Shown here one piece after another: positions 18 to 63,691 of a DNA stretch of 64,000 nt. Position numbers and translations under genes: made by a program. The stretch lies in the IMG/VR virus record IMGVR_UViG_3300020109_000011, positions 22,484 through 86,483 of that record; one strand, given 5' to 3'. The notes below the pieces were generated by a model. That model worked only from the letters and a program-made list of their open reading frames with translations, searched no databases and was not told the origin of the DNA. This stretch comes from a virus. Positions within the stretch are counted from its first letter, which is position 1, and each line of letters begins with the position of its first letter.

Positions 18-1883
18 ATGATCGCGGCCGTCCCGGCCGACCAGGTCACCGCCGCGCTGCCCGAGACGGTGGCCGTGGACAGCCAGGACGCGCTGGACCC
101 CGAGCTCGCATCCGAGCAGGGCTGGGTGGCCTACGCGGTCGTGGACGACCTGGACCCCGGTGCCGTGCTCGACCTCATCCGGCTGCGCCGGGGAGCGACC
201 GGGCCCGAGCTCGTGGCCTACCGCAACGGCGCCTGGAGCGAGGCGCCGGAGATCCTGGCCGACCTCCAGGGCGTGCAGCCCCCGCCGCTGGTGGAGCTCG
301 ACCAGGCCCAGCAGGCCAGCGTGCTGGAGCAGATCGGCGGCGTGCCCGAGGGCAGCGAGGACTCCGGCGACCCGGGCGAGGGCCTGGACGAGGCCGACAA
401 GGTTCCGCCGCTGGCCGCTGCCGCCTTCGGCCGGAAGACCCCGGACCGCCTGGGCGCCCTGCTGGCCGACGCGCCCCTGACCGTGAGCCCGGACCCGCGC
501 GCCGAGAAGCTGCGCCGGTACTGGACCACCGGGAAGGGCGCGGCGAAGATCCGCTGGGGCACCCCCGGCGACTGGACCCGGTGCTACCGCCAGCTGCGCA
601 AGCACATGGGGCTGCGGGCCAAGGGCTACTGCCAGAACCTGCACAAGCGCGCCACCGGCATGTGGGCCGGTGACCGAGGCAACCGGGGCGGCGGACGTGC
701 TGCCGCCCTGGCGGCGGCTGGAACCCCAGCTGCCCAGTCGATGGAGGTCGCGCTGGTCGCGGCCGTGTCAACCGGGCGCTGGTTCTGCCCGGAGGGAGGC
801 ACCACCATGCTGAAGGACGGCATCTACGTGGAGGGCGGCGAGAACGTCGCGCTGCTGCGGACGCTCACCGCCGGGGGCTTCCCGGTCGCGCCGCCGGACG
901 AGTGGTTCGAGAACCCCCAGCTGGACGGCCCGACGCCGCTCACGGTAGACGACGACGGCCGGGTCTACGGCCACATCGCCACCCGCGACGTGTCGCACAT
1001 CGGCCTGCCGGGCCGGGTCAAGGCGCCGATCTCGAAGACGGACTACGCCTACTTCAAGACCGGCCAGCTGGTGACCGCCAGCGGTCGGAAGGTCAACGTC
1101 GGGCAGCTGACCCTGGCCGGGGGCCACGCGCCCCTCCAGGCCGACGCAGCGGCGGCCGTGGCCCACTACGACAACACCGCCAGCGCGGTGGCCGACCTCA
1201 ACGCCGGGGACGACCAGTGGGGCATCTGGGTGGCCGGGGCCGTGCGCCCGGAGGTCACCCCCTCCCAGCTGCGCACGCTGCGCGCCAGCGCGCCGTCGGG
1301 CGACTGGCGGCCGATCAACGGTCGGCTGGAGCTCGTGGCCTGCTGCCAGGTCAACGTGCCCGGCTTCCCGGTCGTGCGCGCCCGGGTGGCCAGCGGCGCC
1401 ATCACCAGCCTGGTGGCGGCCGGTGCGGGGCCGCTCTACGCCCGGCGCCTGGCGCTGATGGCCGACGCGGCCACGGCCGAGCGCATCACCGCGCTGGAGA
1501 ACGCCGTCTTCGCCCAGCTGACCGCCGGGCTGGAGGACCCCAGCGAGGTCATCGTGGCCGACGGGGAGGGCGAGGGCCTGGATGGCGGGGAGCCGATCTC
1601 CGAGGAGCAGGCAGCGGCCGAGGGCCTGGAGGACGAGGACCCGGCGGCCGAGCCGGAGATCAGCGACGCCGTGAAGCGCGCACGGGAGGCCGTGGCCGCG
1701 CGGAAGGCGGCCCAGCCTGCTGAGGCGGCCGTGGAGGCCACGGAGGAGCCTCCGGCACCCGAGGAGACCAGCACCGACCCCGCCAAGGCCACGGACGAGG
1801 ACAAGGAGCGCGCCGACCGGCTGGCCGCGCTGCGCGCGCGGGTGCACGGCAACCGCGAGCCGGTCGCCGCCTCCGGCTCCTGA
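18..1883 (+). CDS. Capsid maturation protease / head morphogenesis protein (probably 5'-truncated by window edge)
   Basis: Actinophage head-protease-like segment (GRVYGHIA...GGHA...HYDNT...GIWVAG...SGDWR...VNVPGFP) plus an upstream RRYW..GKGAAKIRWGTPGD..RC module. The frame is open back to the window start and lies upstream of the capsid gene. Confidence 0.75.
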   Translation: MIAAVPADQVTAALPETVAVDSQDALDPELASEQGWVAYAVVDDLDPGAVLDLIRLRRGATGPELVAYRNGAWSEAPEILADLQGVQPPPLVELDQAQQASVLEQIGGVPEGSEDSGDPGEGLDEADKVPPLAAAAFGRKTPDRLGALLADAPLTVSPDPRAEKLRRYWTTGKGAAKIRWGTPGDWTRCYRQLRKHMGLRAKGYCQNLHKRATGMWAGDRGNRGGGRAAALAAAGTPAAQSMEVALVAAVSTGRWFCPEGGTTMLKDGIYVEGGENVALLRTLTAGGFPVAPPDEWFENPQLDGPTPLTVDDDGRVYGHIATRDVSHIGLPGRVKAPISKTDYAYFKTGQLVTASGRKVNVGQLTLAGGHAPLQADAAAAVAHYDNTASAVADLNAGDDQWGIWVAGAVRPEVTPSQLRTLRASAPSGDWRPINGRLELVACCQVNVPGFPVVRARVASGAITSLVAAGAGPLYARRLALMADAATAERITALENAVFAQLTAGLEDPSEVIVADGEGEGLDGGEPISEEQAAAEGLEDEDPAAEPEISDAVKRAREAVAARKAAQPAEAAVEATEEPPAPEETSTDPAKATDEDKERADRLAALRARVHGNREPVAASGS

Positions 1884-1920
1884 CCTCCGACCCGGCCTGC
1901 CCACCCCCGAGAGGACCCGC

Positions 1921-3957
1921 GTGCTGACGACCGCCGAGCGCCTGGATGTGCTGGAGCGCGCGGTGACCGCCGCCTTCGACCCCAGCCAGCCGCGCGACAA
2001 GAACGGCCGCTGGATCGACACGTTCTCCTCGGTGCACTTCTCCACCGGCCTCATGGGGAAGAAGCGGGCAGGCCGGGTCGCCGGTCCCACCGCCGGGAAG
2101 CCCGGCTACTTCGACGTGGTGGAGAGCGGCAGCGGCAAGCGCACCAGCATCCGCTCGGACAAGCTGGAGGTCATCGACGCCCGGGCCCGGCTGGACACCG
2201 GCCTGGACGAGGCGACTCGGGGGCTGATCGACCGGACCAGCCAGCGTCTGGGCCCTGGGGCACCGTCGGCGCCCGCGCCCGCGCCTGCACCGGCTCCCGT
2301 GCCGGAGGCGCCCCGGCCGGTTGACACGCCCGCCCCGGTCATCGACATGGCCCAGCGGGCCCCGAGCCTGCCCGGTCGCAAGACCGCCGAGGAGGCTCCG
2401 GCCGGGGAGCGGTTCCACGCGAAGGGACCCGACGGGCAGGGCCTCCAGCTGCTGCTGGCGGGCAAGGCCCGTCGGTCCGACGGCGGCTGGACGATCATCG
2501 GCCACGACCAGGAGGGCAACTCCCACCGCGTCGTGGTCCCGCCCGGCGGCACGCTGCGGACGATCCAGCCCGACGCACCCTGGCCGGACACCCGCAACGT
2601 GCCCGAGCCCCCGAAGGACCCCCAGAAGCCGGGCACGCCGCGCGGCAACGCCACGCTGGAGGATCTGGAGGCCGAGGCCGCCGCCAACGGCGAGATCGTG
2701 CTGTACCACGGCGGCCTGCCCGAGGGCACCGGGATGGACGACATCGACCTGGGCCGCGCCGGGAGCCAGCAGAACAAGAAGGGGAAGTCCTACGGCGGCT
2801 TCTACCTGACCGACCCCGGCTCGAAGGACTGGTCCACCGACTACGCGCGGGGCCGCAACGGGGTCATGCACGGCTTCCGGGTCAGCAAGGACGCGAAGGT
2901 CGGCGACCTGGGCAGCAAGAACATCGACCGCCTGTCGGCGAACGAGCGCGCGTCCCTGGCCGAGCAGTTCGACGTGGTCAAGGGCAAGGACACGATGGGC
3001 CGCGACCAGTACGTCCTGCTCAACAAGGACGCCATCTCGGGCGTGGGCGAGACCAACGTGGGGCTGGGCCGCACGGGCAACGTCGGGACCCGGCCGGTGG
3101 CCGCCGCACTGCTGGCTGCGCCGCCCCCGGCTGGGGGCCCGGCGCACCGGATCGCGGCCGACTACGGCGCCAAGAGCAAGAAGAAGGGCCGGAAGGTCGC
3201 CACGAAGGCCGGGGAGAAGCGCTACGGCCTGCCCATCGGCACCCCGCTGGGCCAGGGCAAGGCGAAGAACGAGCAGGACGCCTACAAGCGCTTCACCGAC
3301 CAGAAGACCCCGGCCGACCTCGCGCGAACCGCCTCGTACATGAGCAACGGCGACCTGGCCCTGACGGCCAAGGCCGTGTTCGGCGTGAAGGGCCAGAACG
3401 AGTGGGACAAGGCCGCGCAGATCGCGCTGGTGAAGGAGCTCGCCCAGCGGGGGATCGACCCGCACGGGCTGGGCTACGAGGGCGGCTTCGTCGCGCTGAA
3501 CCCGAACCCGAAGAAGGACCCGACGATCAAGGCGGCGAAGAAGCCGAAGGCCTCCGAGCTCCCTGACAGCGTGGACGCCGAGAAGCTGTCCGACGCGGAC
3601 CTGAGCGTGCTGGCCGAAGCTGGCTGGAAGGGCCGGGCCGACGACCAGCGCGAAGCTCTCTACGCCCCGGAGAATCCCGGACCGCTGCCGTCCGGCCGCC
3701 TGAGCCAGCCCGCCAAGGAGATGCTGCTGGCCCAGGGCTGGCGGACACAGGGCGACCAGCTGGTGCCGCCGAAGACGCAGGTCGAGAAGGAGAACGAGCG
3801 CCTGGCCCGGGAGGCCGAGAGCACGGCCAAGAAGGCCGAGACCGAGCGGAAGAAGGCCGAGGCCGAGGCCGAGAAGGCGCGCAAGGCGGCCGAGCGCCAG
3901 GCCGAGCGCGAGCGGCTGGCGGCCGAGGAGTTGGCGACCATCCCCCGGCGCCGCTGA
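1921..3957 (+). CDS. Head-associated multidomain protein with a putative ADP-ribosyltransferase-like domain
   Basis: N-terminal FDPSQPRDKNGRW motif typical of phage head proteins; central LYHGG...YGGFYLT...DYA ART-like pattern; GEKRYGLPIGT motif; C-terminal coiled coil; GAGGA RBS before the GTG start. Confidence 0.55.
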   Translation: MLTTAERLDVLERAVTAAFDPSQPRDKNGRWIDTFSSVHFSTGLMGKKRAGRVAGPTAGKPGYFDVVESGSGKRTSIRSDKLEVIDARARLDTGLDEATRGLIDRTSQRLGPGAPSAPAPAPAPAPVPEAPRPVDTPAPVIDMAQRAPSLPGRKTAEEAPAGERFHAKGPDGQGLQLLLAGKARRSDGGWTIIGHDQEGNSHRVVVPPGGTLRTIQPDAPWPDTRNVPEPPKDPQKPGTPRGNATLEDLEAEAAANGEIVLYHGGLPEGTGMDDIDLGRAGSQQNKKGKSYGGFYLTDPGSKDWSTDYARGRNGVMHGFRVSKDAKVGDLGSKNIDRLSANERASLAEQFDVVKGKDTMGRDQYVLLNKDAISGVGETNVGLGRTGNVGTRPVAAALLAAPPPAGGPAHRIAADYGAKSKKKGRKVATKAGEKRYGLPIGTPLGQGKAKNEQDAYKRFTDQKTPADLARTASYMSNGDLALTAKAVFGVKGQNEWDKAAQIALVKELAQRGIDPHGLGYEGGFVALNPNPKKDPTIKAAKKPKASELPDSVDAEKLSDADLSVLAEAGWKGRADDQREALYAPENPGPLPSGRLSQPAKEMLLAQGWRTQGDQLVPPKTQVEKENERLAREAESTAKKAETERKKAEAEAEKARKAAERQAERERLAAEELATIPRRR

Positions 3958-3970
3958 CCGGTTGACACGA

Positions 3971-4736: not shown

Positions 4737-4765
4737 AGAATAGCAGGTCTCTCAACACTGTCAAC
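4737..4765 (-). promoter_or_regulatory. Family promoter TTGACA-GTG-TTGAGA-N7-TATTCT
   Basis: Variant of the repeated promoter; points at 4697. Confidence 0.6.
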
Positions 4766-4897
4766 TAGATCTTGCGGCGTGCCCTCACCCGGACGAGTGC
4801 TGTACCGTCTGCCAACGAGAAACGACGGTCGGTGACCACTCCCGATGCGCTCGGACCCTCCGGTGATGTAGCTGACCCTCTACCGGAGGACCCTTTC

Positions 4898-6613: not shown

Positions 6614-6660
6614 TCCGCCTCTCTGACCGGAGTGGTTGACACAGAGAGGAGAGGATCAGC

Positions 6661-7821: not shown

Positions 7822-7872
7822 CCGCTCTGAGCGGTTGACACACCACGACGGCGGCGAGGACTGGAGGATCGG

Positions 7873-9149: not shown

Positions 9150-9565
9150 TGGCCGTGGACGTGGTGGTCGAGATCGATGAGGCCGCCCTGGCCAAGTTCC
9201 AGGGGTGGGAGGGTCCGGTCGGCAAGTCGGTCGAGCGGCTGGCCAAGGAGACGGTCTTCCGGCAGAAGGCCCTCCAGAAGAAGAAGTCCGGCGCGATGAC
9301 CCTGGGCACCCACTACATCAAGCGGACCTGGAAGCGGAACATCGGCTTCGACGCGGGCTCGGACGTGCCCTACGCGGCGGCCAACGACCAGGGCGCGAAG
9401 CCCCACAAGATCAAGGCGAAGAACGCCCCCGCGCTGGTCTTCTTCTGGCCCAAGGTCGGCCGCGTCGTGGCCTTCAAGTCGGTCAACCACCCCGGCAACA
9501 AGCCCTACAACTGGGCCATGCGGGGGCTGGAGCGCGCGCTCCGGATGTGGGAGCGGGGCGGTTGA
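9149..9565 (+). CDS. HK97 gp10-like neck/tail completion protein
   Basis: YAA....GAKPH.I..KN...L.F...VNHPG motif; TGATG coupling. Confidence 0.65.
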   Translation: MAVDVVVEIDEAALAKFQGWEGPVGKSVERLAKETVFRQKALQKKKSGAMTLGTHYIKRTWKRNIGFDAGSDVPYAAANDQGAKPHKIKAKNAPALVFFWPKVGRVVAFKSVNHPGNKPYNWAMRGLERALRMWERGG

Positions 9566-9616
9566 CACACTGAGCTCGTCCGCACGACCAGCACCACGCG
9601 ATGAGATGGAGATGAG

Positions 9617-10248: not shown

Positions 10249-10320
10249 CCGCAGGTCAGGGCCGGTTGACACGGACCGCCCGGACAGGAATGGACGTTCA
10301 GGAGAGGAGGCAAGTCGCCG

Positions 10321-13300
10321 ATGGCCATCGTGGGCACTGCGTTCGTCCGGCTGCGGGTCATCGGCGACAAGCTGAAGAACGACATCTCCCAGGCGACCAA
10401 GGACGCCATCCAGGACGCCTCGCCCGACCTCAACGAGGCCGGGCGGGACGCCGGGCGTGATGTCGGCGATGGGATGGGCGATGGTGTCGAGGAGAGCACC
10501 GACCGCGACATGCCCCGCCGGGGCCAGCGCATCGCCCAGCGGATCAGCGAGGCGATGGCCAAGGCGCTGGCCCCGCTCATCCGGACCAAGGTGGGCGGGG
10601 CCTTCGCCCGGGGCTTCGACCGGATCAGCGACAGCCTGGGCGACCTCGGCAGCCGGGTCTCACCGGTCTTCGAGGGCTTCGGTGACCGGTGGGCCAAGGC
10701 CAGCGCGTTCAAGTTCAAGGGGATCTTCGGGAAGCTGCTGTCCAGCGCCGTAGGCCTGGCCGTGCTCGCGCTCCCGTCCATCCTGTCCTTCATCGGCGTG
10801 GCCATCGGCTCGGTCGTGGCCACGTCGATCACGGCCATCGCAGCGCTGGGCCCGGCCTTCGCCGGGGCCGGGATCGCGGGCGTCGCCGCCTTCTCGGCCG
10901 TGATGATCTCCACCAAGCTGCTGGGCCTGGCCATGAAGTACCCGTCAGACCAACTGACGGACTTCCAGGAGCGCGCGGAACGCTTCCGGGGCACCATCGC
11001 CCGGCCGATCCAGGCGGGGCTGCTGTCGGGCCTCAACGCGGCCATGCGCATCGCCCAGCCCGTGGTGAACGCCCTCCAGCCGCAGCTGACCCGGCTGGGC
11101 ATGGCGGCCGGGGACGTGGCCATCGGCTTCGCCGACGCCATGCGTCAGGGCGCCAACATGGAGCGCCTGGGCCGGATCCTGGACACGAACAACCAGTTCA
11201 TCACCGACGCAGGCGGTGGCATCAGCAAGCTGGGCCAGGCCTTCGTCATCGTGCTGGACGCCCTGCGGCCGATCACCACCGAGATCGGGCAGATGATCGG
11301 CCAGCTGGGGGACTTCGCCCTGCGCTCGGCCGAGGCCGGGTCGGCCAGCGGCGGGTTGGCAGCCGGGGTCGAGCGCTACTGGCGGGCCTTCACCTACTTC
11401 GTCGGCATCCTGGTGGACTACGCCAAGGGCATCGGCAACATCTTCAGCGCGGCCAGCCAGGCCAGCGGCGGGATGCTCCAGAACCTCCAGGCCAACGCGG
11501 ACGCCTTCAACCGCTGGACCGGGGACCCGGCCAACCAGGAGCGGATGGTCGGCTTCTTCGAGCGGATGCGCACCGCCGCAGGTCAGGTCTTCGACCTGCT
11601 CCAGCGCATCGGCGGGGCCTCCATCCGGGGCCTGGAGGGCACGAACATCGAGCGCTTCACGGGCGCCATCGAGGGCCTGATTGCGATGGGCGCGCCCATC
11701 GCCACGATGTTCTCGCAGATCAAGGAGGCGGCCGGGCCGTCCCTCCAGAACGCGCTCAACAACTTCACCACGATGATGGTCCACCTGGCCGAGTCCGGCG
11801 TGCTCACCGTCGTGGCCGACGCCCTGAGCATGGTCTTCGAGGCCATCTCGATGCTGCTGGCCATCCCGGGCATCGGTCAGCTGCTGGCGCTGGCCGCCGG
11901 GGCGCTGGCCATCTTCAAGGCCCTGAGCCTGCTGTGGACCCTGCTCGGGCCCGTCGTGCGGATCCTGATCCTGCTGGTGCAGGTCGTCGGTGGCGCGCTG
12001 GTCGCGGCCTTCGGCTGGATCCCGGTGATTATCGGCCTGGTCGTCGCGGCGCTGATCTGGTTCTTCACCCAGACCGAGATCGGCCGACAGATCATCGAGG
12101 CGGTCTGGAACGCCATCGTGGCGGCCTTCAACTGGGCCAAGGACGCGATCATGACCGCGCTGGAGGCGGTCTGGGGCTTCCTCCAGGAGACCTGGGACGT
12201 GATCTCCACGGTGGCGCAGGCCATCTGGGGGGTCGTGTCAACCGTCTTCGGCGCGATCCGGGACTTCTTCGTCACGGTCTTCACGGCCATCTGGAACGTG
12301 GTCTCGACCTACTTCAACATCGTCTGGACCGTCGTCAGCACGGTGATGAACGCGATCTGGACCGTGATCAGCACGATCCTGAACGTGATCTGGGTGATCT
12401 ACCGGACGATCATCATGACCATCGTCGCCTTCGTGGTGGCCTACTTCCAGCTGATGTGGGGCGTGATCTCCACGGTCATGCAGGCCATCTGGCTGGTCAT
12501 CAGCACCATCTGGGAGGCCATCTGGGGCTTCCTGGAGCCGATCATCTCGGCCATCTGGGAGTTCATCGTCGGGGCCTGGGAGGCCATCTCCGGAGCCATC
12601 AGCACGGCGATGGAGTTCGTGTGGGGCGTCATCTCCGGGGTCTGGAACCGGATCTGGGGCTTCATCAGCGGGATCCTCGGAGCCATCGGCGGCTTCATCT
12701 CCAGCGTGTGGAGCAGCGTCGCGGACTCGGTCGGCGGCTTCGTCTCCCGGATCTGGGAGCGGGTGCGCGACGGCTTCAACACCGTGGTGGACTTCATCCG
12801 GGGCATCCCGGGCCGGGTGATCGGGCTGGCCGGGGACTTCCTGTCGGCCGGTGGCCGGATCATCTCCGGGCTCATGGACGGCATCGCCGAGGGGATCAAC
12901 GCCGCCGGGGACTTCGCGCGGTCGGTGGTCAACCGCATCATCGACTTCCTGAACTCGGCCTTCATCGACGGTCTGAACGACCTACTGGAGTTCACCATCC
13001 CGGTGCCCGGCCTCCCGGACATCAACATCAACCCACCGGACATCCCACGCATCCCCCGCCTGGCCAAGGGCGGCACCATCTCCCCGACGACGGGCGGCAC
13101 GCTGGCGCTCATCGCCGAGGCCGGGCGCTCCGAGCGTGTCGAGCCGCTGGACCCCCAGGGCCTGTCCCGGCGCGACCGCGCGATGATCGACCTGCTGGCG
13201 GGCAGCGCTGGCGCGGGTGCGAACGTGCAGGTCTACATCGGCACGCGCGAGCTCACCGAGCTCGTGGACTTCGTGGTCGAGGACCGCGAGGAGCGGCTGG

Positions 13301-18228: not shown

Positions 18229-18259
18229 TGTTGAGTCCGACGGCTATTCTCAGACCATG
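18229..18259 (+). promoter_or_regulatory. Leaderless promoter variant TGTTGAGT-N8-TATTCT-N6-ATG
   Basis: Same geometry as the proximal box of the family promoters. Confidence 0.55.
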
Positions 18260-20521: not shown

Positions 20522-20558
20522 GGGAGAAGTATGCGCCTCGGGTGTCAACATTGTCAAC
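20511..20558 (-). promoter_or_regulatory. MTQT cassette 1: TTGACA-ATG-TTGACA-N9-CATACT-N6-ATGACGCAGAC
   Basis: Read directly from the sequence. Confidence 0.85.
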
Positions 20559-20588
20559 ACACTTTCTCGGCGTGTCCCCGGAACGGGT

Positions 20589-47031: not shown

Positions 47032-47056
47032 CACCGGCTGCCATACTCGGAAGATG
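47011..47056 (+). promoter_or_regulatory. Family promoter GTTGACA-N7-GTTGACA-N8-CATACT-N6-ATG
   Basis: Read directly from the sequence. Confidence 0.75.
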
Positions 47057-48440: not shown

Positions 48441-48856
48441 GCGCTGTGGAGCACCGCCGGGTCGGGCGGGGGAAGTGCTCGTGTGGCGAGGAGGCCCCGC
48501 TGGGGACCGACATCCACCGCTGGTGGGACGTGCACCTGCTGGGCGAGCGTCCCGAGGGCTGCCGGTCGGTGCACTGCCTGGGCATCGAGTGCATGAACGA
48601 GTGCGAGAGCTCGCACCGGCTGGCCATGTTCGCGGCCCGCTGCGCGGCGGCCGAGGGCGTGCCGGTTGACAGCGTGCGTGCCGTCGAGCTCCAGCCCGAG
48701 CCGCTGGCGGTGGACCCGGGCTGGGCGGCCGTGGACCAGCTGCTGGACGCCATCCAGATCCGCTGCCGCGAGGGCGACAAGCGCTCGGACTGGCTGCCGG
48801 TGATCGACCGGCTGGCCACCGAGGCGCGCGAGCGGCTGCGCAAGATGGTGCCGTGA
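48437..48856 (+). CDS. Hypothetical protein
   Basis: GTGA coupling; CSCG. Confidence 0.55.
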   Translation: MSAVEHRRVGRGKCSCGEEAPLGTDIHRWWDVHLLGERPEGCRSVHCLGIECMNECESSHRLAMFAARCAAAEGVPVDSVRAVELQPEPLAVDPGWAAVDQLLDAIQIRCREGDKRSDWLPVIDRLATEARERLRKMVP

Positions 48857-49366: not shown

Positions 49367-49794
49367 GCACGCTGCTGTGCCCGGAGTGCGGCAGCGGCGG
49401 CGCGCACGAGGCCTGGTGCAGCTGGCGGCCGGAGTGCCTGGTGTTCTGGGGCAGCCACGGCTGCTCCCTGCCCAAGGGCCACGACGACCCCGAGCGGCAC
49501 GTCTGCGGGCACGACGACCCCGACGGGCCGTGCAGCAAGATCGAGCGCGAGTTGGACGAGGTCACCGGCACCGAGGTCTGGGTCTGGCGGTTCGCCGACT
49601 ACGACATCGCTGAGGACCGCGACACCTGGGGCGACGACGCCTTCACGGTGGCGCCGTTCGGCGAGGACGTGCCCGAGAAGTACCAGGTCACCGCCGAGGA
49701 GGAGCAGGCCCTGCGCGAGGCCTGGCGGGCGGCCGGGAAGGTGGCCACCTGGGTGGAGGGCTCCGGCTGGGTCAAGCTGACCCCCGGTGGTTGA
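49363..49794 (+). CDS. Cys/His-rich hypothetical protein
   Basis: WGSHGC.L..GH....H.C; stop codon inside GTTGACA. Confidence 0.6.
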   Translation: MSTLLCPECGSGGAHEAWCSWRPECLVFWGSHGCSLPKGHDDPERHVCGHDDPDGPCSKIERELDEVTGTEVWVWRFADYDIAEDRDTWGDDAFTVAPFGEDVPEKYQVTAEEEQALREAWRAAGKVATWVEGSGWVKLTPGG

Positions 49795-49820
49795 CACACC
49801 TGGGCCATACTCGCCGTGTG
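49788..49820 (+). promoter_or_regulatory. Family promoter TTGACA-N9-CATACT-N6-GTG
   Basis: Read directly from the sequence. Confidence 0.65.
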
Positions 49821-49970: not shown

Positions 49971-49972
49971 CC

Positions 49973-51354: not shown

Positions 51355-51849
51355 GTGGCTGAAGCCTCCGGCATGGCCGGGAAGTACCCCGTGTCAACCG
51401 GCGGTCCCGAGGACATCCAGACCGCCTGGAAGATCCTGGCCGGGGGCGCGCCCGTGGCGGCTGCCTCGCTGGTGGACATCGCCGAGAACGGGAAGTCCGA
51501 GATGGCCCGGGTGACGGCCAGCATGGCCGTGCTGGACCGGGTGGGCCTGGCCACGCCGAAGGAGCGCCCCTCGGTCACCTTCGCGGTCATCCCGAAGGAG
51601 GCCCAGGAGTACGGGATCACCCAGCAGATCTCGGCCGCCGAGGTGATCCGGGACCGCCTGAAGGCCCTGGGCGCCGCCGTGCCGGGAGGCGGCAACTCCC
51701 ACCCGCACGTCCAGCCGCAGACGCAGACACCGCCGCTGGCCGAGGTCCCGGCCGGGGACCCGTCCTGGGCGTCCGACGACAGCGACATCGTGGACGCCCA
51801 GATCGTGGACGACGACGGCGACTGGGACGACGGCAACCCGTGGGGCTGA
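51355..51849 (+). CDS. Hypothetical protein, possibly terminase small subunit-like
   Basis: AP.AA..LV.IA....SE.ARV.A...VLDR.GL; GAGGAG RBS. Confidence 0.45.
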   Translation: MAEASGMAGKYPVSTGGPEDIQTAWKILAGGAPVAAASLVDIAENGKSEMARVTASMAVLDRVGLATPKERPSVTFAVIPKEAQEYGITQQISAAEVIRDRLKALGAAVPGGGNSHPHVQPQTQTPPLAEVPAGDPSWASDDSDIVDAQIVDDDGDWDDGNPWG

Positions 51850-52165: not shown

Positions 52166-52561
52166 GTGGACTTCACCTGGACCGGAGCGGACTGGCTGGT
52201 CGCGCTGCTGCTGTGCTGGCTGGCGCTGGGGATCGGCTTCGTCATGGGCTGGGCCGGGCGGGTGTCCTTCGAGCGGCACCACCGGGGCAGCGTCCCCGTG
52301 GAGGCTGCTCCCGCGCCGAAGACTGCGCCCTCCCCTACCCCGCACACCCAGAAGATCGACTTCAGCCAGGCGCCCCCGCCTGTGTCAACCGCCGGGCACC
52401 CGCTGCGCCGGGCCAGCGACCGCCCGGGCGGCCCGGAGCCCGAGGTCCGGCCCGGGGGCCGACGCCGGTCCGACGCCCCCGCGATGACCCGGGCCGAGGC
52501 GCGCAGGCTGCGGGAGCAGGGCTATCCGGACCCGGACACAGAACGGCCCCGCCAGCCGTAG
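52166..52561 (+). CDS. Membrane-anchored Pro/Arg-rich protein
   Basis: N-terminal TM helix. Confidence 0.5.
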   Translation: MDFTWTGADWLVALLLCWLALGIGFVMGWAGRVSFERHHRGSVPVEAAPAPKTAPSPTPHTQKIDFSQAPPPVSTAGHPLRRASDRPGGPEPEVRPGGRRRSDAPAMTRAEARRLREQGYPDPDTERPRQP

Positions 52562-53145: not shown

Positions 53146-53172
53146 GCACCCAGTATCGTCACATTTGTCAAC
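53135..53172 (-). promoter_or_regulatory. Cassette variant TTGACA-N8-GATACT-N6-ATGACGAAGAC
   Basis: One mismatch to the MTQT 11-mer. Confidence 0.8.
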
Positions 53173-53245
53173 AAACTTGAGCGGCGCGCCGAAGAAATGT
53201 CTCTGGGCCGTGGTAGTCCACCCCTCCGGGTGACCCCGGGCACGA

Positions 53246-53723: not shown

Positions 53724-54493
53724 AGGGTCCTCTCGGCGGGCGGGGAGCCCAGGAGCTCGGGGCGGTCGTTCTCGTCGGCGGCCTCGTCCAGCACCTCCAC
53801 GTCGGTGTCAACCGGCACGGCCGGGAGCTCGACCAGGGTCCGGGTCTCCCCCGCCTCGATGCCCAGCCGGGTGGCCTCGGCCTGGACCATCGCCTCGATG
53901 TCGGCGCGGGCCTTCTGCACGACGTTCTCGGTGTGCTCGACCAGCGTCTTCGCCGCGTGGTGGATGTTGGGCGCGGAGTTCTCGATGGCGTAGTGCAGCG
54001 CGCGCAGCGCCTCGTTGCGCACCTTGGCGGGCGCCTTGTCGGTCAGCGCCTTCTCGTAGGCGTCGCGCGCCTCGCGGATCTTCACGAAGGCCGCCGCCGC
54101 CGCGCCCTTGACCTCGCCCATCGAGTGCGCGAGCCGGGGCGCGTACTCCACGCCGGGGACGTTCCAGTCGGTCTCGGTGCGCCGGATGGTGCACGGGACC
54201 CCGGAGGTGTTCATGGACGAGACGAAGCTGGCCCACTGGGCCTCGCTCATCTCGACCTCGATCAGGTCCGGCCCGGAGCCGTGGATGTAGTCGTGGCTGC
54301 CCTCCCGCGAGCGGGTGGCGCGCTGGACGGTGACCCGCACGGTGCGGCCGTGCTTGATGTCGCTGTCGAACAGGACGACCCCCGGGGTGGCCGAGACCCG
54401 GTGCGCCACGATGCTGCCCCAGGCGGGGTGCTCCTCGGAGCCGTACTCGGTCTTGGTCGGGGGCTGCGGGGCGTGCCAGACGGTGTCGCGCAT
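53720..54493 (-). CDS. Conserved phage hypothetical protein
   Basis: HPAWG...RV....LFDS...H...LIEVEMSEAQWA.FVSS.N..GVPCT; GAGGAG RBS. Confidence 0.75.
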   Translation of the reverse strand: MRDTVWHAPQPPTKTEYGSEEHPAWGSIVAHRVSATPGVVLFDSDIKHGRTVRVTVQRATRSREGSHDYIHGSGPDLIEVEMSEAQWASFVSSMNTSGVPCTIRRTETDWNVPGVEYAPRLAHSMGEVKGAAAAAFVKIREARDAYEKALTDKAPAKVRNEALRALHYAIENSAPNIHHAAKTLVEHTENVVQKARADIEAMVQAEATRLGIEAGETRTLVELPAVPVDTDVEVLDEAADENDRPELLGSPPAERTL

Positions 54494-54562
54494 GGGGGTT
54501 CTCCTCAGGCTGTGGAAAGGGCTGTGGGCCCGGCCCCGAAGGGCCGGGCCGGTTGACAGGGG

Positions 54563-54739: not shown

Positions 54740-54775
54740 GGGCCAAGTATGCATGGCCGTGTCAACAGTGTCAAC
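54729..54775 (-). promoter_or_regulatory. MTQT cassette 6: TTGACA-CTG-TTGACA-N8-CATACT-N6-ATGACGCAGAC
   Basis: Read directly from the sequence. Confidence 0.85.
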
Positions 54776-54797
54776 AAGACACGCCCGGGACACACCA

Positions 54798-54948: not shown

Positions 54949-54969
54949 GAGCTCAGTATGGCAACCGTG

Positions 54970-56034
54970 TCAACGGTGGAGCGCGTAGACCTTGTCGGTC
55001 ACGACCAGCGGCTTGCCCTCGGGGCCCTTCACGTAGGGCGCCCGCCAGATCCGGGCCATGAAGCGCCCGGGCGCGACCTCCTGCGCCAGCGGGTGGTCCG
55101 GCCCGACGTGGTACCAGGCCCAGTGGCCGCGCACGACCCAGCGGTGCGACCACTCCACCAGAGTCTCCCCCTCGGCGCGGGCGCTCTCCTTGCGGCGCAG
55201 CTGGACCACGGTGACGCGGTGCGGGATGCCCATCCGGCCGGTCCGCTTCCGCCGGGCCCTGTCAACCGGGGCGTCGGAGGTGTCGGCGACCGTCTGGCCC
55301 AGCAGCAGCCAGAAGGCGTGCATCAGGCGGACCGGGTTCGTGAACTCGTGCGGCGTGTCGCCCTCGGCGAGGATCTGTGCGGCGTGCTCCTCGCGCGTGG
55401 TCATCATCGCCGGGCCCAGCCGCATCCCCTCGTAGAGGTTGTTGCAGCCGATCAGGCCCCAGCGGCCCAGCGTGCGCTCGACCTCGTCCACGGCCGACTG
55501 CGGGAAGCCCTTGCTCTCGGCGTCCTTCGGGAGCAGCGCGTAGATCTCGTCGGGCTCCTCGCGGTGGTCGTTGAACAGGTAGATCACCGTGCCGGTCATC
55601 GGCTCGCCCGTGTCGTGCTGGGCGTACTGCACCAGCACCGGGGCCCAGCAGGCCCAGCTGATCAGCATCTTCCGGCCGCGCACGTCGTGGAACGGCAGCC
55701 CGCCCTCGAACCGCGCGATGCCCGAGCGGGTCGGCATGATCGAGTGCTGGATCCGGTCCAGGCCGTCCAGCTGGCTGGCCGCGTACTGGATCAGCGTGCC
55801 CATCTCGGCCGAGACGTGGTAGGCGGCAGCGTTGGGCAGGGTCTGGCGCAGCGCGTCCACCACGGCCGCACCCTGTGCGCGGGCCAGCGGCGGGCTCTCG
55901 ATGGCCTCCTGCACGGCCGCACGCGGGTTGTGGATGTCCAGGGCCACCTGACCGGTCCACATGCGCCGCAGCAGCGGGTTCTCCAGCCGGACCATCAGGT
56001 CGGCCTTGTGGTCCAGCACCTCGGGCGCCCTCAC
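54970..56034 (-). CDS. Conserved phage protein with C-terminal VRGHW motif
   Basis: HRW.VRGHW...IW..PYVKGP..KP; stop codon inside GTTGACA. Confidence 0.7.
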   Translation of the reverse strand: MRAPEVLDHKADLMVRLENPLLRRMWTGQVALDIHNPRAAVQEAIESPPLARAQGAAVVDALRQTLPNAAAYHVSAEMGTLIQYAASQLDGLDRIQHSIMPTRSGIARFEGGLPFHDVRGRKMLISWACWAPVLVQYAQHDTGEPMTGTVIYLFNDHREEPDEIYALLPKDAESKGFPQSAVDEVERTLGRWGLIGCNNLYEGMRLGPAMMTTREEHAAQILAEGDTPHEFTNPVRLMHAFWLLLGQTVADTSDAPVDRARRKRTGRMGIPHRVTVVQLRRKESARAEGETLVEWSHRWVVRGHWAWYHVGPDHPLAQEVAPGRFMARIWRAPYVKGPEGKPLVVTDKVYALHR

Positions 56035-56593: not shown

Positions 56594-56629
56594 GGCTCTA
56601 GTATGCACTCCGTTGTCAACAGTGTCAAC
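56583..56629 (-). promoter_or_regulatory. MTQT cassette 7: TTGACA-CTG-TTGACA-N8-CATACT-N6-ATGACGCAGAC
   Basis: Read directly from the sequence. Confidence 0.85.
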
Positions 56630-56633
56630 AGGG

Positions 56634-57032
56634 TCAGCAGTGCGTGTTGCCGACCTGGTTGACGAAGTCCCGGGCCTCGGTGTCGGTCAGGCCGAAGTTC
56701 CAGACCAGCGAGTCGGCCATGTTGACCACCGGCACCCCGGCGGTGAAGCCCTCGCAGATCAGGTCGGCGGTCTGCTCGACCAGCGCGACCTGCTCGGGGG
56801 TGAGGTCCGCGCCGGGCACGAGCTCGACGGCCACCGACTGGTAGACCGGGATCGCGTCGATGCGCTGGAACTCCACGGCCGGGGTGTCAACCACCTGGGC
56901 CTGGGTGCCGGGGTTCGGCATCAGCAGCAGGGCCATCAGGCCGAAGGCCAGCGTGGCCAGGACGACCAGGGCGCCACGAGCGGCGGCCTGGGTGCGGGTG
57001 AGGGCGGGGGCGAGGGCGAAGGTCTGCGTCAT
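56634..57032 (-). CDS. MTQT-start membrane-anchored protein (DUF732-like C-terminus)
   Basis: TM helix; A..IC.....G.........GL....A..FV......C. Confidence 0.65.
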   Translation of the reverse strand: MTQTFALAPALTRTQAAARGALVVLATLAFGLMALLLMPNPGTQAQVVDTPAVEFQRIDAIPVYQSVAVELVPGADLTPEQVALVEQTADLICEGFTAGVPVVNMADSLVWNFGLTDTEARDFVNQVGNTHC

Positions 57033-57069
57033 GCCCAGAGTCTCGGCTATCTCGTTGACAATGTTGAGC
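57022..57069 (-). promoter_or_regulatory. MTQT cassette 8 with inverted box pair (GTTGACA-AT-GTTGAG on +)
   Basis: GAGACT-N6-ATGACGCAGAC on minus; boxes on plus; divergent gene pair. Confidence 0.7.
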
Positions 57070-57155: not shown

Positions 57156-57674
57156 GTGGAGCTCATCGACCTGGACGACCTCACCGACCGGGGCCTGCTG
57201 AAGCAGGTGCTCCGATCTGTCAACCGCATGGAGGAACGCATGACCGCGCTCACCGACGCCATCGGCCGCCTGGCCGGGGCCATCACCGACCGGATCGGCA
57301 CGCTGGAGGACACCATCGCGCGCGAGCGTGAGGCGGCCGAGGCGCTGGCCGCCGCCGAGGCGGCCGAGGACGTGGAGCAGAACGCCGAGCGCGACCGGCT
57401 CATCAGCGAGCGGGACGCGGCGCGCGCCGAGACCGACCGCGTGCTGGCCGAGGCCACCGAGCAGGTGGATGCGCTCACCGCGCAGGTGCAGGGTTCCCAG
57501 GAGGCGCCGGGCACCGAGGAGCCGGACGCCCCGACCGAGCCGGAGACCCCGGCGGGCGGCGGCGGCACGGTGGACGGCAGCGAGGGCGAGGTCCCCGGGG
57601 TGACCCCGGTGGAGACCGAGCCGGTCGCCAGCGAGCCGGTCGGCGAGGGCGACCAGCCGCAGCAGCAGGGCTGA
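57156..57674 (+). CDS. Coiled-coil protein with acidic tail
   Basis: TACGCT-N6-GTG leaderless start; GC3 bias. Confidence 0.65.
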   Translation: MELIDLDDLTDRGLLKQVLRSVNRMEERMTALTDAIGRLAGAITDRIGTLEDTIAREREAAEALAAAEAAEDVEQNAERDRLISERDAARAETDRVLAEATEQVDALTAQVQGSQEAPGTEEPDAPTEPETPAGGGGTVDGSEGEVPGVTPVETEPVASEPVGEGDQPQQQG

Positions 57675-57710: not shown

Positions 57711-57921
57711 GTGTCAACCAGCCTGCTGGTCGCGCTTCTCGGTGGAGATCTCGGCCAGCGCGTCGCGGCGGCCGTCCCGGCGCCCGACCTTGTAGGCCGC
57801 CTTCAGCGCCTCGTGCAGGAAGTCCACCCGCTTGACCGTCCCGGCCGAGTGCATCCGGCGCAGGAGGCGGGCACTCTCCTCGATGCTCGGCTCGGCCACA
57901 AGCCCACTCTGCGGGGTCTGC

Positions 57922-58275: not shown

Positions 58276-58688
58276 CAGCCCGGCCACCTCTCGTCGTGCA
58301 CCTCGATGTCGGCGTAGCTGCCGAACAGCCCGGCGAAGGTCGGCAGCCGCTGCCCGGTCACCCGGGACTCGAAGGTCCGCACCGGTACCGACCGCAGCTG
58401 GCCCGAGCGGTACTCCTCGTGCGCGGCCGTCAGGGCCTGGTAGACCGCGTCCTCGTTCGGCCCCTGGTTGACACGCCACTTCCGGCCGCAGCCCGGACAG
58501 CGGAGCTCCCCAGCCGTCGGGCCCATCTCGACCTCGACGTGCGGACGGTCGTGCAGGAAGTAGTGCGGGCTGGGCGGCCAGACCAGGCGCTGGATCCGGA
58601 ACGCGATCTCGTTGCGCCCGTCCTCGTCCAGGTCCAGCGACTTCGCCAGCTGGACGGCGGTCTCCATGATGTCGTCGTCGGTGATCAC
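58275..58688 (-). CDS. Hypothetical protein
   Basis: Coupled ORF; CPGCG. Confidence 0.6.
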   Translation of the reverse strand: MITDDDIMETAVQLAKSLDLDEDGRNEIAFRIQRLVWPPSPHYFLHDRPHVEVEMGPTAGELRCPGCGRKWRVNQGPNEDAVYQALTAAHEEYRSGQLRSVPVRTFESRVTGQRLPTFAGLFGSYADIEVHDERWPG

Positions 58689-59083: not shown

Positions 59084-59436
59084 CACTCCACCACCTGCCA
59101 GTCCCCGACCAGACGCCGGACGATCTCGAAGTGCTTGTGGTCCTCGGGGTCGTGCCCCGCGATCTTCGTCAGGTGCCACTGGGCGGCCTCCAGCGTGCCG
59201 CGCTTCCCGTAGAGCGCCTTCGGGATGATCCGGGGCAGGGCGTAGACCCAGTCCTCGGACTTGGACCGGACGCACCACTCGTAGCGCAGGCCCTCCTCCT
59301 CCCGCAGCACCGCCAGCGCGCGCTCGGCGCGGCCGGGCTCCCCGGTGAACTCCCCCATGTCAACCGGGCACTGGGGGTCGCCGTAGGCGCACCGGGCGCG
59401 CGTGCAGTGGCCCCGGTGGATGGCCTCGTCACCCAC
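59083..59436 (-). CDS. Hypothetical protein
   Basis: H..HC....C.YG...CPV; VRRLVG.W end motif. Confidence 0.6.
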   Translation of the reverse strand: MGDEAIHRGHCTRARCAYGDPQCPVDMGEFTGEPGRAERALAVLREEEGLRYEWCVRSKSEDWVYALPRIIPKALYGKRGTLEAAQWHLTKIAGHDPEDHKHFEIVRRLVGDWQVVE

Positions 59437-59818
59437 GGGCCCGGTCCGCCTTCCAGCTCTCCAGCACCTGATCCAGCGGCTGGCCGGTCATCCCCTCGGT
59501 GTCCCGCAGGATCACCAGCTGGTTGGGCCGCAGCCACTGGAGGAAGTCGTGCACGGCCTCGGACCCGGCGGTTGACAGGTGCCGGGCCAGCAGCGAGATC
59601 GCGCCGTCCTGGCTGTGCCCGCCGAAGGTCAGGTCGTCCAGGATCGCGCTGGCCTGCGCGCGCTGGCTGGCCGTGCTCGGCGGCACCGCGTGCTGGAGGG
59701 CGCCCTTCTCCCGCTCGTCGGCCAGCGCCTGCGCGATGGCCCAGACGGTGGGCTGGTAGCCGTCCTCGCCCAGCAACTCCTCGGCGTGGTCCTGGTCGGC
59801 CTGGGTCGGCTTCGCCAT
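59429..59818 (-). CDS. Hypothetical protein
   Basis: TGATG coupling. Confidence 0.6.
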   Translation of the reverse strand: MAKPTQADQDHAEELLGEDGYQPTVWAIAQALADEREKGALQHAVPPSTASQRAQASAILDDLTFGGHSQDGAISLLARHLSTAGSEAVHDFLQWLRPNQLVILRDTEGMTGQPLDQVLESWKADRARG

Positions 59819-61158: not shown

Positions 61159-61316
61159 GTGCGCCTCCTCAGGCGGTTGACACGGCGACGCCAGCGCCAG
61201 CGGGACCAGAAGCCCGCGTGCAGCGCCACGTCCTCGGAGCAGACCAGGCAGCGCCAGGACCAGTAGAGGGGCCCTGGCGCTGCCGCGTGGTCGTAGATCA
61301 GGCCGTTGCGGATCAC
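61155..61316 (-). CDS. Small hypothetical protein
   Basis: GTGA/ATGA coupling; W.C.VC. Confidence 0.45.
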   Translation of the reverse strand: MIRNGLIYDHAAAPGPLYWSWRCLVCSEDVALHAGFWSRWRWRRRVNRLRRRT

Positions 61317-61951: not shown

Positions 61952-61987
61952 GGAACAAGTATGGGCCCCGCTGTCAACTGTGTCAAC
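61941..61987 (-). promoter_or_regulatory. MTQT cassette 9: TTGACA-CAG-TTGACA-N8-CATACT-N6-ATGACGCAGAC
   Basis: Read directly; flanked by the inverted repeat TATGGGCCCCG/CGGGGCCCATA. Confidence 0.85.
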
Positions 61988-62016
61988 AACGGGGCCCATA
62001 CGGGTGAGCGTGCCGC

Positions 62017-62461: not shown

Positions 62462-62497
62462 GGAGAAAGTATGGCGCGCCGTGTCAACAGTGTCAAC
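62451..62497 (-). promoter_or_regulatory. MTQT cassette 10: TTGACA-CTG-TTGACA-N8-CATACT-N6-ATGACGCAGAC
   Basis: Read directly from the sequence. Confidence 0.85.
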
Positions 62498-62519
62498 ACG
62501 GCGCGCTCTACCGGGTGAG

Positions 62520-63354: not shown

Positions 63355-63397
63355 GAGTCCAAGATAGTTGACAGTGTTGACAAATGCAAGCCATACC
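63344..63397. promoter_or_regulatory. MTQT cassette 11, divergent: boxes on + (TTGACA-GTG-TTGACA-N9-CATACC), -10 TATCTT on -
   Basis: Read directly from the sequence. Confidence 0.75.
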
Positions 63398-63423
63398 CCG
63401 GCGAGTCCTGCCACCATCGAGGG

Positions 63424-63666
63424 ATGTACGAGATCCCCGACCCGCTGACCGAGGCCCGCCAGCAGGCCGCACAGGGCTGGACCCAGACCATCCTGGCCCG
63501 GACCTCCGAGCTTTCGCCGAGCACGCCGCTGCCCGACCGCATCGCGCACGCCGACCTGCCCGAGCTCCCGGAGTGGCTGACGAAGCTGATCTGGATCGAG
63601 CTCGTGGCCTGGCGCGGCCAGGCCCTGGTCGAGCGGGTCGTGGCCCGCGCGGGCGCCCACGGTTGA
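63424..63666 (+). CDS. Hypothetical protein
   Basis: GAGG upstream; stop codon inside GTTGACA. Confidence 0.55.
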   Translation: MYEIPDPLTEARQQAAQGWTQTILARTSELSPSTPLPDRIAHADLPELPEWLTKLIWIELVAWRGQALVERVVARAGAHG

Positions 63667-63691
63667 CACGGCTGGCTATAGCCTGACCGCC

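Follow-up and report, generated by a model that had tools for sequence, protein, structure and literature searches.

Why would a phage chromosome carry one short asymmetric word in dozens of evenly spaced copies, in either orientation and for the most part inside its genes? The question is raised by a stretch of 64,000 nucleotides (hereafter the window), bases 22484-86483 of the 86,483-bp IMG/VR virus record IMGVR_UViG_3300020109_000011 (71.3% G+C, estimated complete), across which a reading of the sequence alone had described a grid of YGGTTGACAC sites. The word, written in full Y-GGTTGACA-C-S, is interpreted here, with about as much confidence for as against, as a putative docking site on double-stranded DNA, repeated chromosome-wide, for one sequence-specific protein.

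The grid itself is borne out by simple counts. The window contains the exact word GGTTGACAC 39 times, for an expectation of 0.41, the largest number in 100 dinucleotide shuffles being 3, and the whole record holds 55 copies (26 forward, 29 reverse) and none of the reversed control word. With the last base left free, GGTTGACA is found 66 times in the record and 49 times in the window. The core hexamer TTGACA is present 95 times in the record, with a G before every one, and 77 times in the window, in good agreement with the total of about 75 first given with promoter copies included. From 242 sites aligned over four records, an array word of 11 informative positions emerges: the base just before GGTTGACA is C in 169, T in 63 and G in 1, the base after it is C in 176, and the next base is G or C in 222. 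No dyad, second half-site or flanking conservation was found within 20 bp on either side of these aligned sites. Two further ideas were tried and dropped. Near-cognate words seemed to be avoided, as TTGACA without the preceding G occurs once against 26.7 expected by composition (344 kb), but a codon-aware expectation for the record is only 1.1-1.8 against 0 observed (P = 0.17-0.33). Hairpins are no more convincing, with flanking stems of at least 7 bp at 6.2% of 274 sites and at 4.7% of 6,000 control positions; one site (record position 70646) does lie in the loop of a 9-bp inverted repeat.

Four related records, found via PolA searches and a pattern scan, carry the same array as the window's phage (G000):

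G001, 85.4 kb, 70 GGTTGACA sites, coefficient of variation (CV) of the gaps 0.56
G003, 82.7 kb, 79 GGTTGACA sites, gap CV 0.59
G002, 31.4 kb, 27 GGTTGACA sites, gap CV 0.53
G411, 89.6 kb, 59 GGTTGACA sites, gap CV 0.54

Even spacing, suspected from the start, is a strong property of the array. Gaps in G000 average 1312 bp with a CV of 0.49. Random placement gives 0.99, and among 20,000 such placements not one reached this evenness. Only 3 gaps are shorter than 400 bp where 17.2 are expected, the shortest being 198 bp (15676 to 15874), and the largest gap between sites of the GG type is 3020 bp against a null mean of 6147. The maximum of about 2.2 kb reported earlier therefore holds when the promoter-type loci described below are included (2210 bp), and not for the GG-type sites alone. 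Across the five records the maximum gap is 3.0-4.2 kb. Site density is equal in early and late regions, and the rule is not one site per gene, since a single 3009-aa gene has seven; spacing is set by distance, not by gene.

Orientation follows no such rule. As had been claimed, both orientations occur relative to the genes: 32 of the 66 sites of G000 are same-sense and 34 anti (judged by the surrounding gene for sites in coding sequences, CDSs, and by the nearest gene for the 17 others), the CDS sites alone being divided 21 to 28. Pooled over four genomes, 219 of 274 sites lie in CDSs, 116 sense and 103 antisense. Forward and reverse counts in four records are 32/34, 32/38, 34/45 and 13/14, and the strand labels form the same runs as permuted labels, with no strand switch along the genome. 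In these four records the per-strand gap CV is 0.72-0.94, against 0.75-0.79 for permuted labels, and that of the pooled set is 0.49-0.59; each strand is a random thinning of the pooled array, and regularity appears only with both strands combined. Orientation is thus random, relative to genes and along the chromosome. Because the labels are random and only the pooled set is regular, a single-strand or polar reader (Chi, KOPS, a primase or a Cluster A stoperator) is disfavoured: neither the strand bias or per-strand order of Chi and KOPS nor the per-strand evenness of primase sites was found, and the Chi-like protective signal proposed in the sequence-only reading fits poorly.

How far the array overrides coding needs can be measured within the genes. 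Coordinates and CDS counts come from our own codon-usage caller, a heuristic and not a validated gene finder, which called 128 genes. Inside CDSs lie 49 of the record's 66 sites, as against 2.4 +/- 1.4 (maximum 6) in 200 synonymous shuffles preserving each protein and per-gene codon usage and 0.5 +/- 0.7 (maximum 3) in 200 codon permutations, so that the enrichment persists beyond a codon-aware null. Rare codons write these sites, and only in usable frames: of 21 sense sites 19 take the frame xxG GTT GAC AC, of 28 antisense sites 19 spell GTG TCA ACC and the other 9 GTC AAC C, and the sense frame reading TGA is never used within genes. At 38007, as pointed out before, the site spells GTT GAC ACG GAG in the exonuclease domain of PolA, beside the invariant residues D36 and E38. 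Selection acts on the DNA.

The word also doubles as punctuation, a stop (TGA) at three genes and a start (GTG) at three. A site overlaps the gene end at four genes, at three of which its own TGA is the stop codon (9560, 49789, 63661), and three genes have as their called start the GTG in its complement (27032 in the window; 2133 and 4292 in the record). One such start is that of a 537-aa putative large terminase gene (record 4291), where the site is also exact in G001; the gene is conserved at ~70% identity, and its assignment as a terminase is tentative.

Most of the sites had been located correctly before: 46 of 48 listed coordinates lie within 3 bp of a GGTTGACA. The two others are an isolated AGTTGACAC at 29598 (listed as 29588) and a promoter-type TGTTGACAG at 39763 (listed as 39761), and the list had missed 47012, 49789 and 63661. 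The array in the window, apart from the site at 49789 given further below, reads as follows:

766..773, minus strand, array site CGGTTGACACGG, in CDS, antisense
2319..2326, plus strand, array site CGGTTGACACGC, in CDS, sense
3960..3967, plus strand, array site CGGTTGACACGA, intergenic
6634..6641, plus strand, array site TGGTTGACACAG, intergenic, upstream of the major tail protein gene
7833..7840, plus strand, array site CGGTTGACACAC, intergenic
9560..9567, plus strand, array site CGGTTGACACAC, own TGA stops a gene that ends at 9565
10264..10271, plus strand, array site CGGTTGACACGG, intergenic
12236..12243, minus strand, array site, in CDS (1003-aa gene), antisense
13548..13555, plus strand, array site, in CDS, sense; exact at the homologous place in G003
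15180..15187, minus strand, array site variant GGTTGACAG, in CDS, antisense
15676..15683, minus strand, array site, in CDS, antisense; exact in G001
15874..15881, minus strand, array site, in CDS, antisense; 198 bp from the preceding site
18084..18091, minus strand, array site variant GGTTGACAT, in CDS, antisense
18749..18756, minus strand, array site, intergenic, in the convergent gap after a winged-helix gene
21219..21226, minus strand, array site, in CDS, sense; exact in G001
22185..22192, plus strand, array site, in CDS, antisense
23602..23609, minus strand, array site, in CDS, sense
24332..24339, plus strand, array site, in CDS, antisense
25238..25245, minus strand, array site, in CDS, sense
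27032..27039, plus strand, array site; gene strand reads GTG TCA ACC from the called start codon
28051..28058, plus strand, array site, intergenic
29598..29605, plus strand, isolated AGTTGACAC, the sole isolated non-GG copy in the window
30699..30706, plus strand, array site, in CDS, antisense; exact in G003 and G002
32003..32010, minus strand, array site, intergenic
35023..35030, plus strand, array site, in the SNF2 helicase gene, antisense
36226..36233, minus strand, array site, in CDS, sense
38007..38014, minus strand, array site, PolA 3'-5' exonuclease domain; absent there in G001 and G003
38819..38826, plus strand, array site variant GGTTGACAG, in CDS; homologous place in G001 has TGTCAACC, the word inverted
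40137..40144, plus strand, array site variant GGTTGACAG, in CDS, antisense
41103..41110, minus strand, array site, in the PD-(D/E)XK nuclease gene, sense; exact in G001
42506..42513, plus strand, array site, in CDS, sense
43760..43767, plus strand, array site, in CDS, sense; exact in G001 and G003
45394..45401, plus strand, array site, in the DUF3987 helicase gene, sense; exact in G001
47012..47019, plus strand, array site, 14 bp upstream of a promoter-type copy
48163..48170, minus strand, array site, in CDS, antisense
48664..48671, plus strand, array site variant GGTTGACAG, in CDS, sense
51392..51399, minus strand, array site, in CDS, antisense
52383..52390, minus strand, array site, in CDS, antisense
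53806..53813, minus strand, array site, in CDS, sense
54551..54558, plus strand, array site variant GGTTGACAG, intergenic
55260..55267, minus strand, array site variant GGTTGACAG, in CDS; exact in G001
56885..56892, minus strand, array site, in CDS, sense
57218..57225, minus strand, array site variant GGTTGACAG, in CDS, antisense
57712..57719, minus strand, array site, overlaps a gene end
58466..58473, plus strand, array site, in CDS, antisense
59358..59365, minus strand, array site variant GGTTGACAT, in CDS, sense
59570..59577, plus strand, array site variant GGTTGACAG, in CDS, antisense
61175..61182, plus strand, array site, intergenic
63661..63668, plus strand, array site, own TGA is a stop codon; TATAGC 8 bp downstream, promoter-like geometry

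Comparison of the relatives, among which site turnover had been proposed as a check, separates the word from its places. Proteins of G001, G003 and G002 share a median identity of 54%, 50% and 51% with those of the window's phage, and the word is identical across the five records despite this ~50% identity. Individual sites are far less stable: those in CDSs of G000 are exact in G001 at 16 of the 32 places aligned ungapped (a further one coincides with an alignment gap) and in G003 at 6 of 17 alignable places. The non-exact ones are lost at the homologous place, with new ones elsewhere, and at 38819 the same word stands inverted in G001. The comparison points to purifying selection with turnover of sites, the array appearing as a character of the clade. 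The next relatives, with PolA 43-47% identical and ~61% G+C, contain 0, 1 and 2 copies over 20-38 kb, and no different word is regularly spaced in them. GGTGATC was considered as an alternative word in the non-array relatives L013, L017 and L226, where it is frequent, but their DNA is GATC-rich and the gap CV is 0.95-1.58. GATC is indeed abundant in these contigs of ~61% G+C, with 234 copies in L226 (21.3 kb), 160 in L017 (19.7 kb) and 161 in L013 (18.4 kb), about three times the expectation by a rough composition estimate.

Beyond the clade, the cultured and distantly related phages GodonK, Mimi and Pumpernickel, the last two jumbo actinophages, have no array and show a modest excess of GTTGACA at most, their 123-193 kb containing 21, 77 and 43 copies. 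The copies in Mimi (MN234211.2) compare with 20 of the reversed control and those in Pumpernickel (NC_073468.1) with 14. Strands are biased in Mimi (51/26) and Pumpernickel (33/10) and divided 7/14 in GodonK; the copies in the first two are probably consensus -35 promoters oriented with transcription. Among potential hosts, CGGTTGACAC reaches at most 13 copies per genome in 401 Actinomycetota genomes sampled from the whole phylum, like its reversed control, against 40 in the 86-kb record, and five further actinobacterial genomes have 6-17 copies of GGTTGACAC each. The word is ~200 times denser in the phage record than in the actinobacterial genomes sampled. An equal density in host chromosomes, a case raised by the sequence-only reading, was thus not observed in these 406 genomes, among which the phage's own host may not be included. 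We found no description of an evenly spaced array of this kind in print, the four 9-letter forms of the word matching only primer lists and a search on over-represented, regularly spaced motifs of phages yielding nothing of relevance, and the array seems to be undescribed in the literature searched.

A second class of copies stands at promoters. At 17 loci in the record, of which the window has 15, TTGACA is followed after 7-9 bp by a CATACT-like -10 box before a leaderless gene, which at 11 of the 17 begins ATGACGCAGAC (M-T-Q-T) some six bases past the -10 box. The invariant TTGACA box of these loci, which are predicted to form a family of leaderless early promoters, occupies positions -26 to -21, and at 9 of the 17 a second copy lies 9 bp upstream, that is 17 bp from the -10 box, at the -35 position. 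As had been noticed, isolated sites have GG before the core and promoter copies TG or AG: the latter mostly carry T or A where array sites have their first G, and three GG-type sites were found in promoter geometry. The loci in the window and a few related copies are:

20528..20559, minus strand, promoter-type locus, tandem TGTTGACA twice, N9, CATACT, leaderless ATGACGCAGAC gene
20985..21015, minus strand, promoter-type locus, tandem, N8, CATACT, leaderless ATGACG gene
23886..23915, minus strand, promoter-type locus, single AGTTGACA, N7, CATACT
26724..26754, minus strand, promoter-type locus, tandem, N8, CATACT
29311..29341, minus strand, promoter-type locus, TGTTGACA, N8, TATTCT; upstream copy degenerate
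30336..30366, minus strand, promoter-type locus, tandem, N8, GATACT
39752..39782, plus strand, promoter-type locus, single TGTTGACA, N8, CACTCT
47017..47047, plus strand, promoter-type locus, CGTTGACA, N8, CATACT
49780..49811, plus strand, GG-type site in promoter geometry, GGTTGACA-N9-CATACT; the site's TGA (49789) ends the upstream gene
53152..53182, minus strand, promoter-type locus, single TGTTGACA, N8, GATACT
54746..54776, minus strand, promoter-type locus, tandem, N8, CATACT
54955..54984, minus strand, promoter-type locus, CGTTGACA, N7, CATACT
56600..56630, minus strand, promoter-type locus, tandem, N8, CATACT
61958..61988, minus strand, promoter-type locus, tandem, N8, CATACT
62468..62498, minus strand, promoter-type locus, tandem, N8, CATACT
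63366..63382, plus strand, tandem AGTTGACA/TGTTGACA, upstream of the gene at 63424
4759..4766, minus strand, AGTTGACA with degenerate second copy, divergent intergenic region
33480..33487, minus strand, AGTTGACA with degenerate second copy, upstream of a conserved 105-aa gene
57053..57060, plus strand, CGTTGACA with degenerate second copy, upstream of the plus-strand gene at 57156

Array sites are not themselves promoters, a TANNNT box at a spacer of 16-18 bp occurring at 0 of 274 and a -10-like box at a spacer of 7-9 at 7 of 274. The two classes nevertheless appear to take account of each other. Promoter loci lie at a median of 444 bp from the nearest array site, against 334 bp for random points (p = 0.0009, four genomes pooled), and adding them to the array yields a lower gap CV than random points do in G000 (P = 0.026) and G001 (P = 0.001). 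We infer that the promoter copies count toward the spacing of the array and that one reader serves both classes.

The explanation that we favour, docking of one protein along the whole chromosome, would then take the following form. Selection maintains one copy per ~1.0-1.5 kb and leaves no stretch longer than ~3-4 kb without one. The one-letter variant, with T or A for the first G, supplies the leaderless early promoters with their -26 to -21 box, and in many cases with the -35 box too, and the same reader would act there and along the entire phage chromosome. Seated on the -26 box, and on the -35 box where a second copy exists, it could be a repressor in the spacer or an adaptor between DNA and sigma-A comparable to PafBC. 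Elsewhere the evenly spaced copies would hold the reader along the whole chromosome, the array serving as an 'address tag' that may nucleate a phage-specific nucleoprotein state (coat, roadblocks, compaction) or mark phage against host DNA. A coverage function is proposed because of the even spacing, the capped maximum gap, the equal early and late density and the indifference to orientation. The reader is probably monomeric, of the helix-turn-helix type and blind to orientation. As for PafBC of actinobacteria, PMC8635444 describes a 'sigma adaptation' in which a winged helix placed between DNA and sigma-A region 4 reads a box at about -28 to -21 in combination with a canonical -10, with the consensus tGTCgg(N10)tA(N3)T. 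In the phage early promoters the invariant box occupies this same position, but under a different consensus; PafBC promoters have no -35 box and PafBC sites are not scattered within genes, whereas 9 of the 17 phage promoters add the copy at 17 bp.

Several points weigh against this explanation. Binding by a protein, the identity of that protein and the effect of the array are what we infer from the enrichment, spacing, conservation and promoter exclusion that were observed, and the gene calls behind the CDS counts are our own heuristic. The core of the word is the -35 hexamer of host sigma-A and is unchanged among phages with ~50% protein identity, two facts that suit a conserved reader in the host no less than one from the phage. 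The test on combined spacing is not significant in G003 (0.198) or G411 (0.65). The exclusion itself is marked, 4 of 70 intergenic regions with a promoter-type locus also holding an array site against 45 of 148 without one, but its Fisher p of 2e-5 pools four genomes and treats homologous regions of related genomes as independent, and such exclusion could reflect interference between two readers and not a shared one.

Which phage protein might read the word? The best but weak candidate is the last gene of the tail operon:

18257..18556, plus strand, encodes a basic winged-helix protein of 99 aa at the end of the tail operon, weak candidate reader

The product has a pI of 11.4 and a conserved basic N-terminal arm. 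It gave no Pfam, NCBIfam or PDB sequence match and none in 50,697 phage records; its AlphaFold2 model is a winged helix (pLDDT 82.8), whose nearest structures are regulators of the PadR, MarR and Fur types at a TM of ~0.6, but it lacks their dimerisation parts. By BLASTP it has 55 database relatives, 54-100% identical, one of them the window's own. A 41-row alignment that includes 39 close homologues (55-76% identical) shows three near-invariant elements in an otherwise variable sequence, namely the arm, the recognition helix (T-T-Q-R-V-A-S-R-L-K) and the wing. All 11 contigs retrieved with a homologue at least 49% identical carry the word, and the non-array relatives have homologues of 37-38% identity in which arm, helix and wing are all different. 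Against the candidate, several of the 11 contigs are near-identical, so that the co-occurrence is of clade level and phylogenetically confounded, and the family extends to the array-less relatives just mentioned. In the L243 homologue (49% identity) the recognition helix is not the same, and still 3 sites are found on the 5-kb contig. Winged helices of the PadR and MarR type, moreover, usually bind dyads as dimers, and the array site is asymmetric. That this protein reads the word is something we would sooner doubt than grant. More tentative still, and rather improbable in our estimation, is the full picture that it would allow: a new type of signal, an evenly spaced and orientation-blind 'address tag', at which a monomeric winged helix from the tail genes (18257-18556) would be bound every ~1.5 kb or less, possibly entering the next cell with the DNA, and would form a shield or roadblock against host tracking enzymes or a mark of phage DNA, while also reading the -26 box.

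Other genes were examined as readers and set aside. The 208-aa protein (41935-42561) has only an insignificant Hin-like stretch (E = 0.98) and a poorly conserved putative recognition helix. Encoded on the plus strand and very basic, it combines an N-terminal Cys-rich stretch (weak WhiB-like PHROG hit) with a helix-turn-helix-like middle and a conserved ...G.PP.AWDD... motif, and it is present in all four related records at ~35% identity. The zinc-finger part of a C2H2 protein (29374-30006) does not align in G003 and G002. This 210-aa minus-strand product has its finger at residues 111-132 (Pfam E = 4.7e-07), unusual for a bacterial virus, and may have a second one downstream. The 105-aa protein (33133-33450) is conserved equally in array-less relatives, and G001 and G003 both lack a homologue of the winged-helix gene at 60566-60823.

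The most serious alternative places the reader in the host, where sigma-A region 4 in RNA polymerase, or WhiA, would bind the array, concentrating the transcription machinery on the phage or acting as a decoy that titrates a regulator such as WhiA, an activator of cell division; we hold this to be unlikely, but several points favour it. The core is the consensus -35 hexamer, TTGACAC includes the WhiA motif GACAC, and both are read by small helix-turn-helix domains in the major groove. According to PMC10243135 and PMC3781837, GACA is recognised alike by sigma-A region 4 and the C-terminal domain of WhiA, and WhiA is monomeric and binds in either orientation; a slow-evolving reader would also explain an identical word in five records at ~50% protein identity. 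Titration or recruitment, however, requires copy number and not even spacing, and the spacing is strongly regular in all five records (CV 0.49-0.59). In PMC10243135 the last C of GACAC is contacted by the sole hydrogen bond that is base-specific, and in PMC3781837 MEME found no extension of the 5-bp motif, whereas the array dispenses with this C in 27% of its sites (GGTTGACC has 43 copies, GGTTGACG 24) and requires the upstream Y-G-G, its invariant G at -1, strong G at -2 and Y at -3 corresponding to no known -35 or WhiA feature. GACAC shows no excess beyond the array (826 against 659 expected), and sigma-A, which leaves the upstream G-G unexplained, would be without its -10 partner. A self-tag with the logic of DNA uptake sequences (DUS) or Chi, by which the terminase packages phage DNA only or a phage nuclease spares its own DNA, appears quite unlikely, although even spacing with a capped gap is what would be predicted if every fragment must carry one, and the low density of the word in the bacterial genomes sampled agrees with it. 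Among the phage's genes are those for a PD-(D/E)XK nuclease and an endonuclease VII, and its self-closing record and the circular permutation of its relatives are as headful packaging expects; still, nothing links terminase or nuclease to the word, the promoter connection is not predicted, and in headful packaging one pac site per concatemer suffices. Random strand labels exclude a single-strand signal of the Chi type, so that the tag must be read on duplex DNA and this alternative therefore merges with the docking explanation. The array resembles DUS of Neisseria and uptake signal sequences (USS) of Pasteurellaceae, asymmetric words of 9-12 bases found about once per kb in both orientations, largely in genes, and read by a protein as tags on duplex DNA. 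They belong, however, to bacterial chromosomes and competence machinery, unlike the present word, which is on a phage without uptake machinery and shows no enrichment in the bacteria sampled.

Gene content bears on the remaining alternatives. A Pfam scan of 70 of the 128 called genes, the other 58 being mostly structural or very small, found no methyltransferase, HNH, nickase, ParB, sigma factor, integrase or partition gene and no recognisable repressor (gp71 was not compared directly). Silencing of a prophage by a repressor, through an early-promoter operator and dispersed transcription-blocking sites, lacks support and is very unlikely; no lysogeny genes were seen among those scanned and no prophage relative was found in GTDB species genomes in one search with the 537-aa putative terminase gene as query. 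It remains the closest phage comparison. PMC9283540 describes, for Cluster A, a monomeric repressor that binds more than 20 asymmetric 13-bp sites at the early promoter and dispersed, in short intergenic spaces and in an orientation that follows transcription and is needed for function; PMC6550527 describes motifs that drift with the repressor between subclusters. Like the operator and stoperator arrays of L5 gp71 and the TipsytheTRex repressor, the array has dozens of copies of an asymmetric site of about a dozen bases, at promoters and dispersed (17 promoter loci and 66 GG-type sites in the record). Unlike them, it has 80% of its sites in genes, random orientation and regular spacing, and its word does not change across the clade. 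Replication signals, whether sites of a primase-polymerase/helicase pair (43095-45850), priming sites or multiple origins, are scarcely probable: a DUF3987 helicase does stand beside a 343-aa gene without family match, and the sites are about as far apart as a bacterial Okazaki fragment usually is long, but a template-strand signal should be regular per strand, no strand switch exists and the promoter link is unexplained. We give just as little credence to a target for a sequence-specific modification or nicking enzyme. Short asymmetric words are typical targets and nicked phage genomes are known, but no such enzyme domain came out of the scan, eleven specified positions are long for a methyltransferase target, and neither even spacing nor the promoter link is accounted for. 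Six sequencing runs, none of them RNA, are listed with this DNA, all in the form of contigs, and the run containing it in full is a lake-water metagenome that may be its source. Four of the runs showed no pile-up of read ends over 30001-50000, which counts neither for nor against a mark, as contigs reveal no ends, nicks or modified bases. Arrays of the ParB, KorB and Noc type share the repetition of one word over a replicon that a protein can thereby cover, but their loading sites are palindromic and read by ParB-family dimers, whereas the word is asymmetric here and no ParB-family domain was seen among the 70 genes scanned. Among the functions suggested in the sequence-only reading, then, a protein-binding grid fits best, while a Chi-like signal, pure titration of a host factor, WhiA and lysogenic silencing all fit poorly.

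The bearer of the array is a tailed actinobacterial phage without a close cultured relative. Megablast against 50,697 phage records gave no match; the major tail protein and PolA have only distant matches (at most 47% identity) in phages of Gordonia, Microbacterium, Arthrobacter, Mycobacterium and Streptomyces, and the identity between its PolA and those of cultured actinophages does not exceed 35%. Nucleotides 18-143 of the record recur as its final 126 nt (window 63875-64000), so the assembly closes on itself, and the related records are circularly permuted relative to it, as would be expected if a terminally redundant, headful-packaged genome had been assembled as a circle; although listed as linear, the record has an end that overlaps its start, and one gene spans the junction. 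The replication module comprises the SNF2 helicase, PolA, an AAA_24 protein, the PD-(D/E)XK nuclease and the DUF3987 helicase. No tRNA genes were found in the window. Four auxiliary genes were listed:

57922-58287, minus strand, HIT-family hydrolase
61313-61951, minus strand, isochorismatase-family protein, its gene 50-51% identical to genes of Brevibacterium, Nocardioides and other Actinomycetota
32685-33071, minus strand, endonuclease VII
32057-32668, minus strand, SAP-motif protein

In the left arm of the record, outside the window, a 98-aa protein (L001:571-867, plus strand) contains an Acb2/Tad1 hairpin domain (Pfam E = 1.1e-08) and is likely a sponge for cyclic-nucleotide immune signals, directed against CBASS or Thoeris.

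An evenly spaced array inside viral genes would mean that the whole chromosome is read as DNA, a need that overrides codon choice even in the DNA polymerase. The only well-studied phage analogue, the stoperator array, is polar and intergenic, and an array blind to orientation and ruled by distance would suggest another role, for instance coating, shielding, compaction or self-marking. With one word, one clade and few candidate readers, it offers a testable handle, and it bears on how common promoters with a -26 box ('sigma adaptation') are in actinobacteria. For the annotation of these phages it also carries a warning, as clusters of rare codons and apparent protein motifs such as V-D-T or V-S-T may be imposed by a DNA signal.

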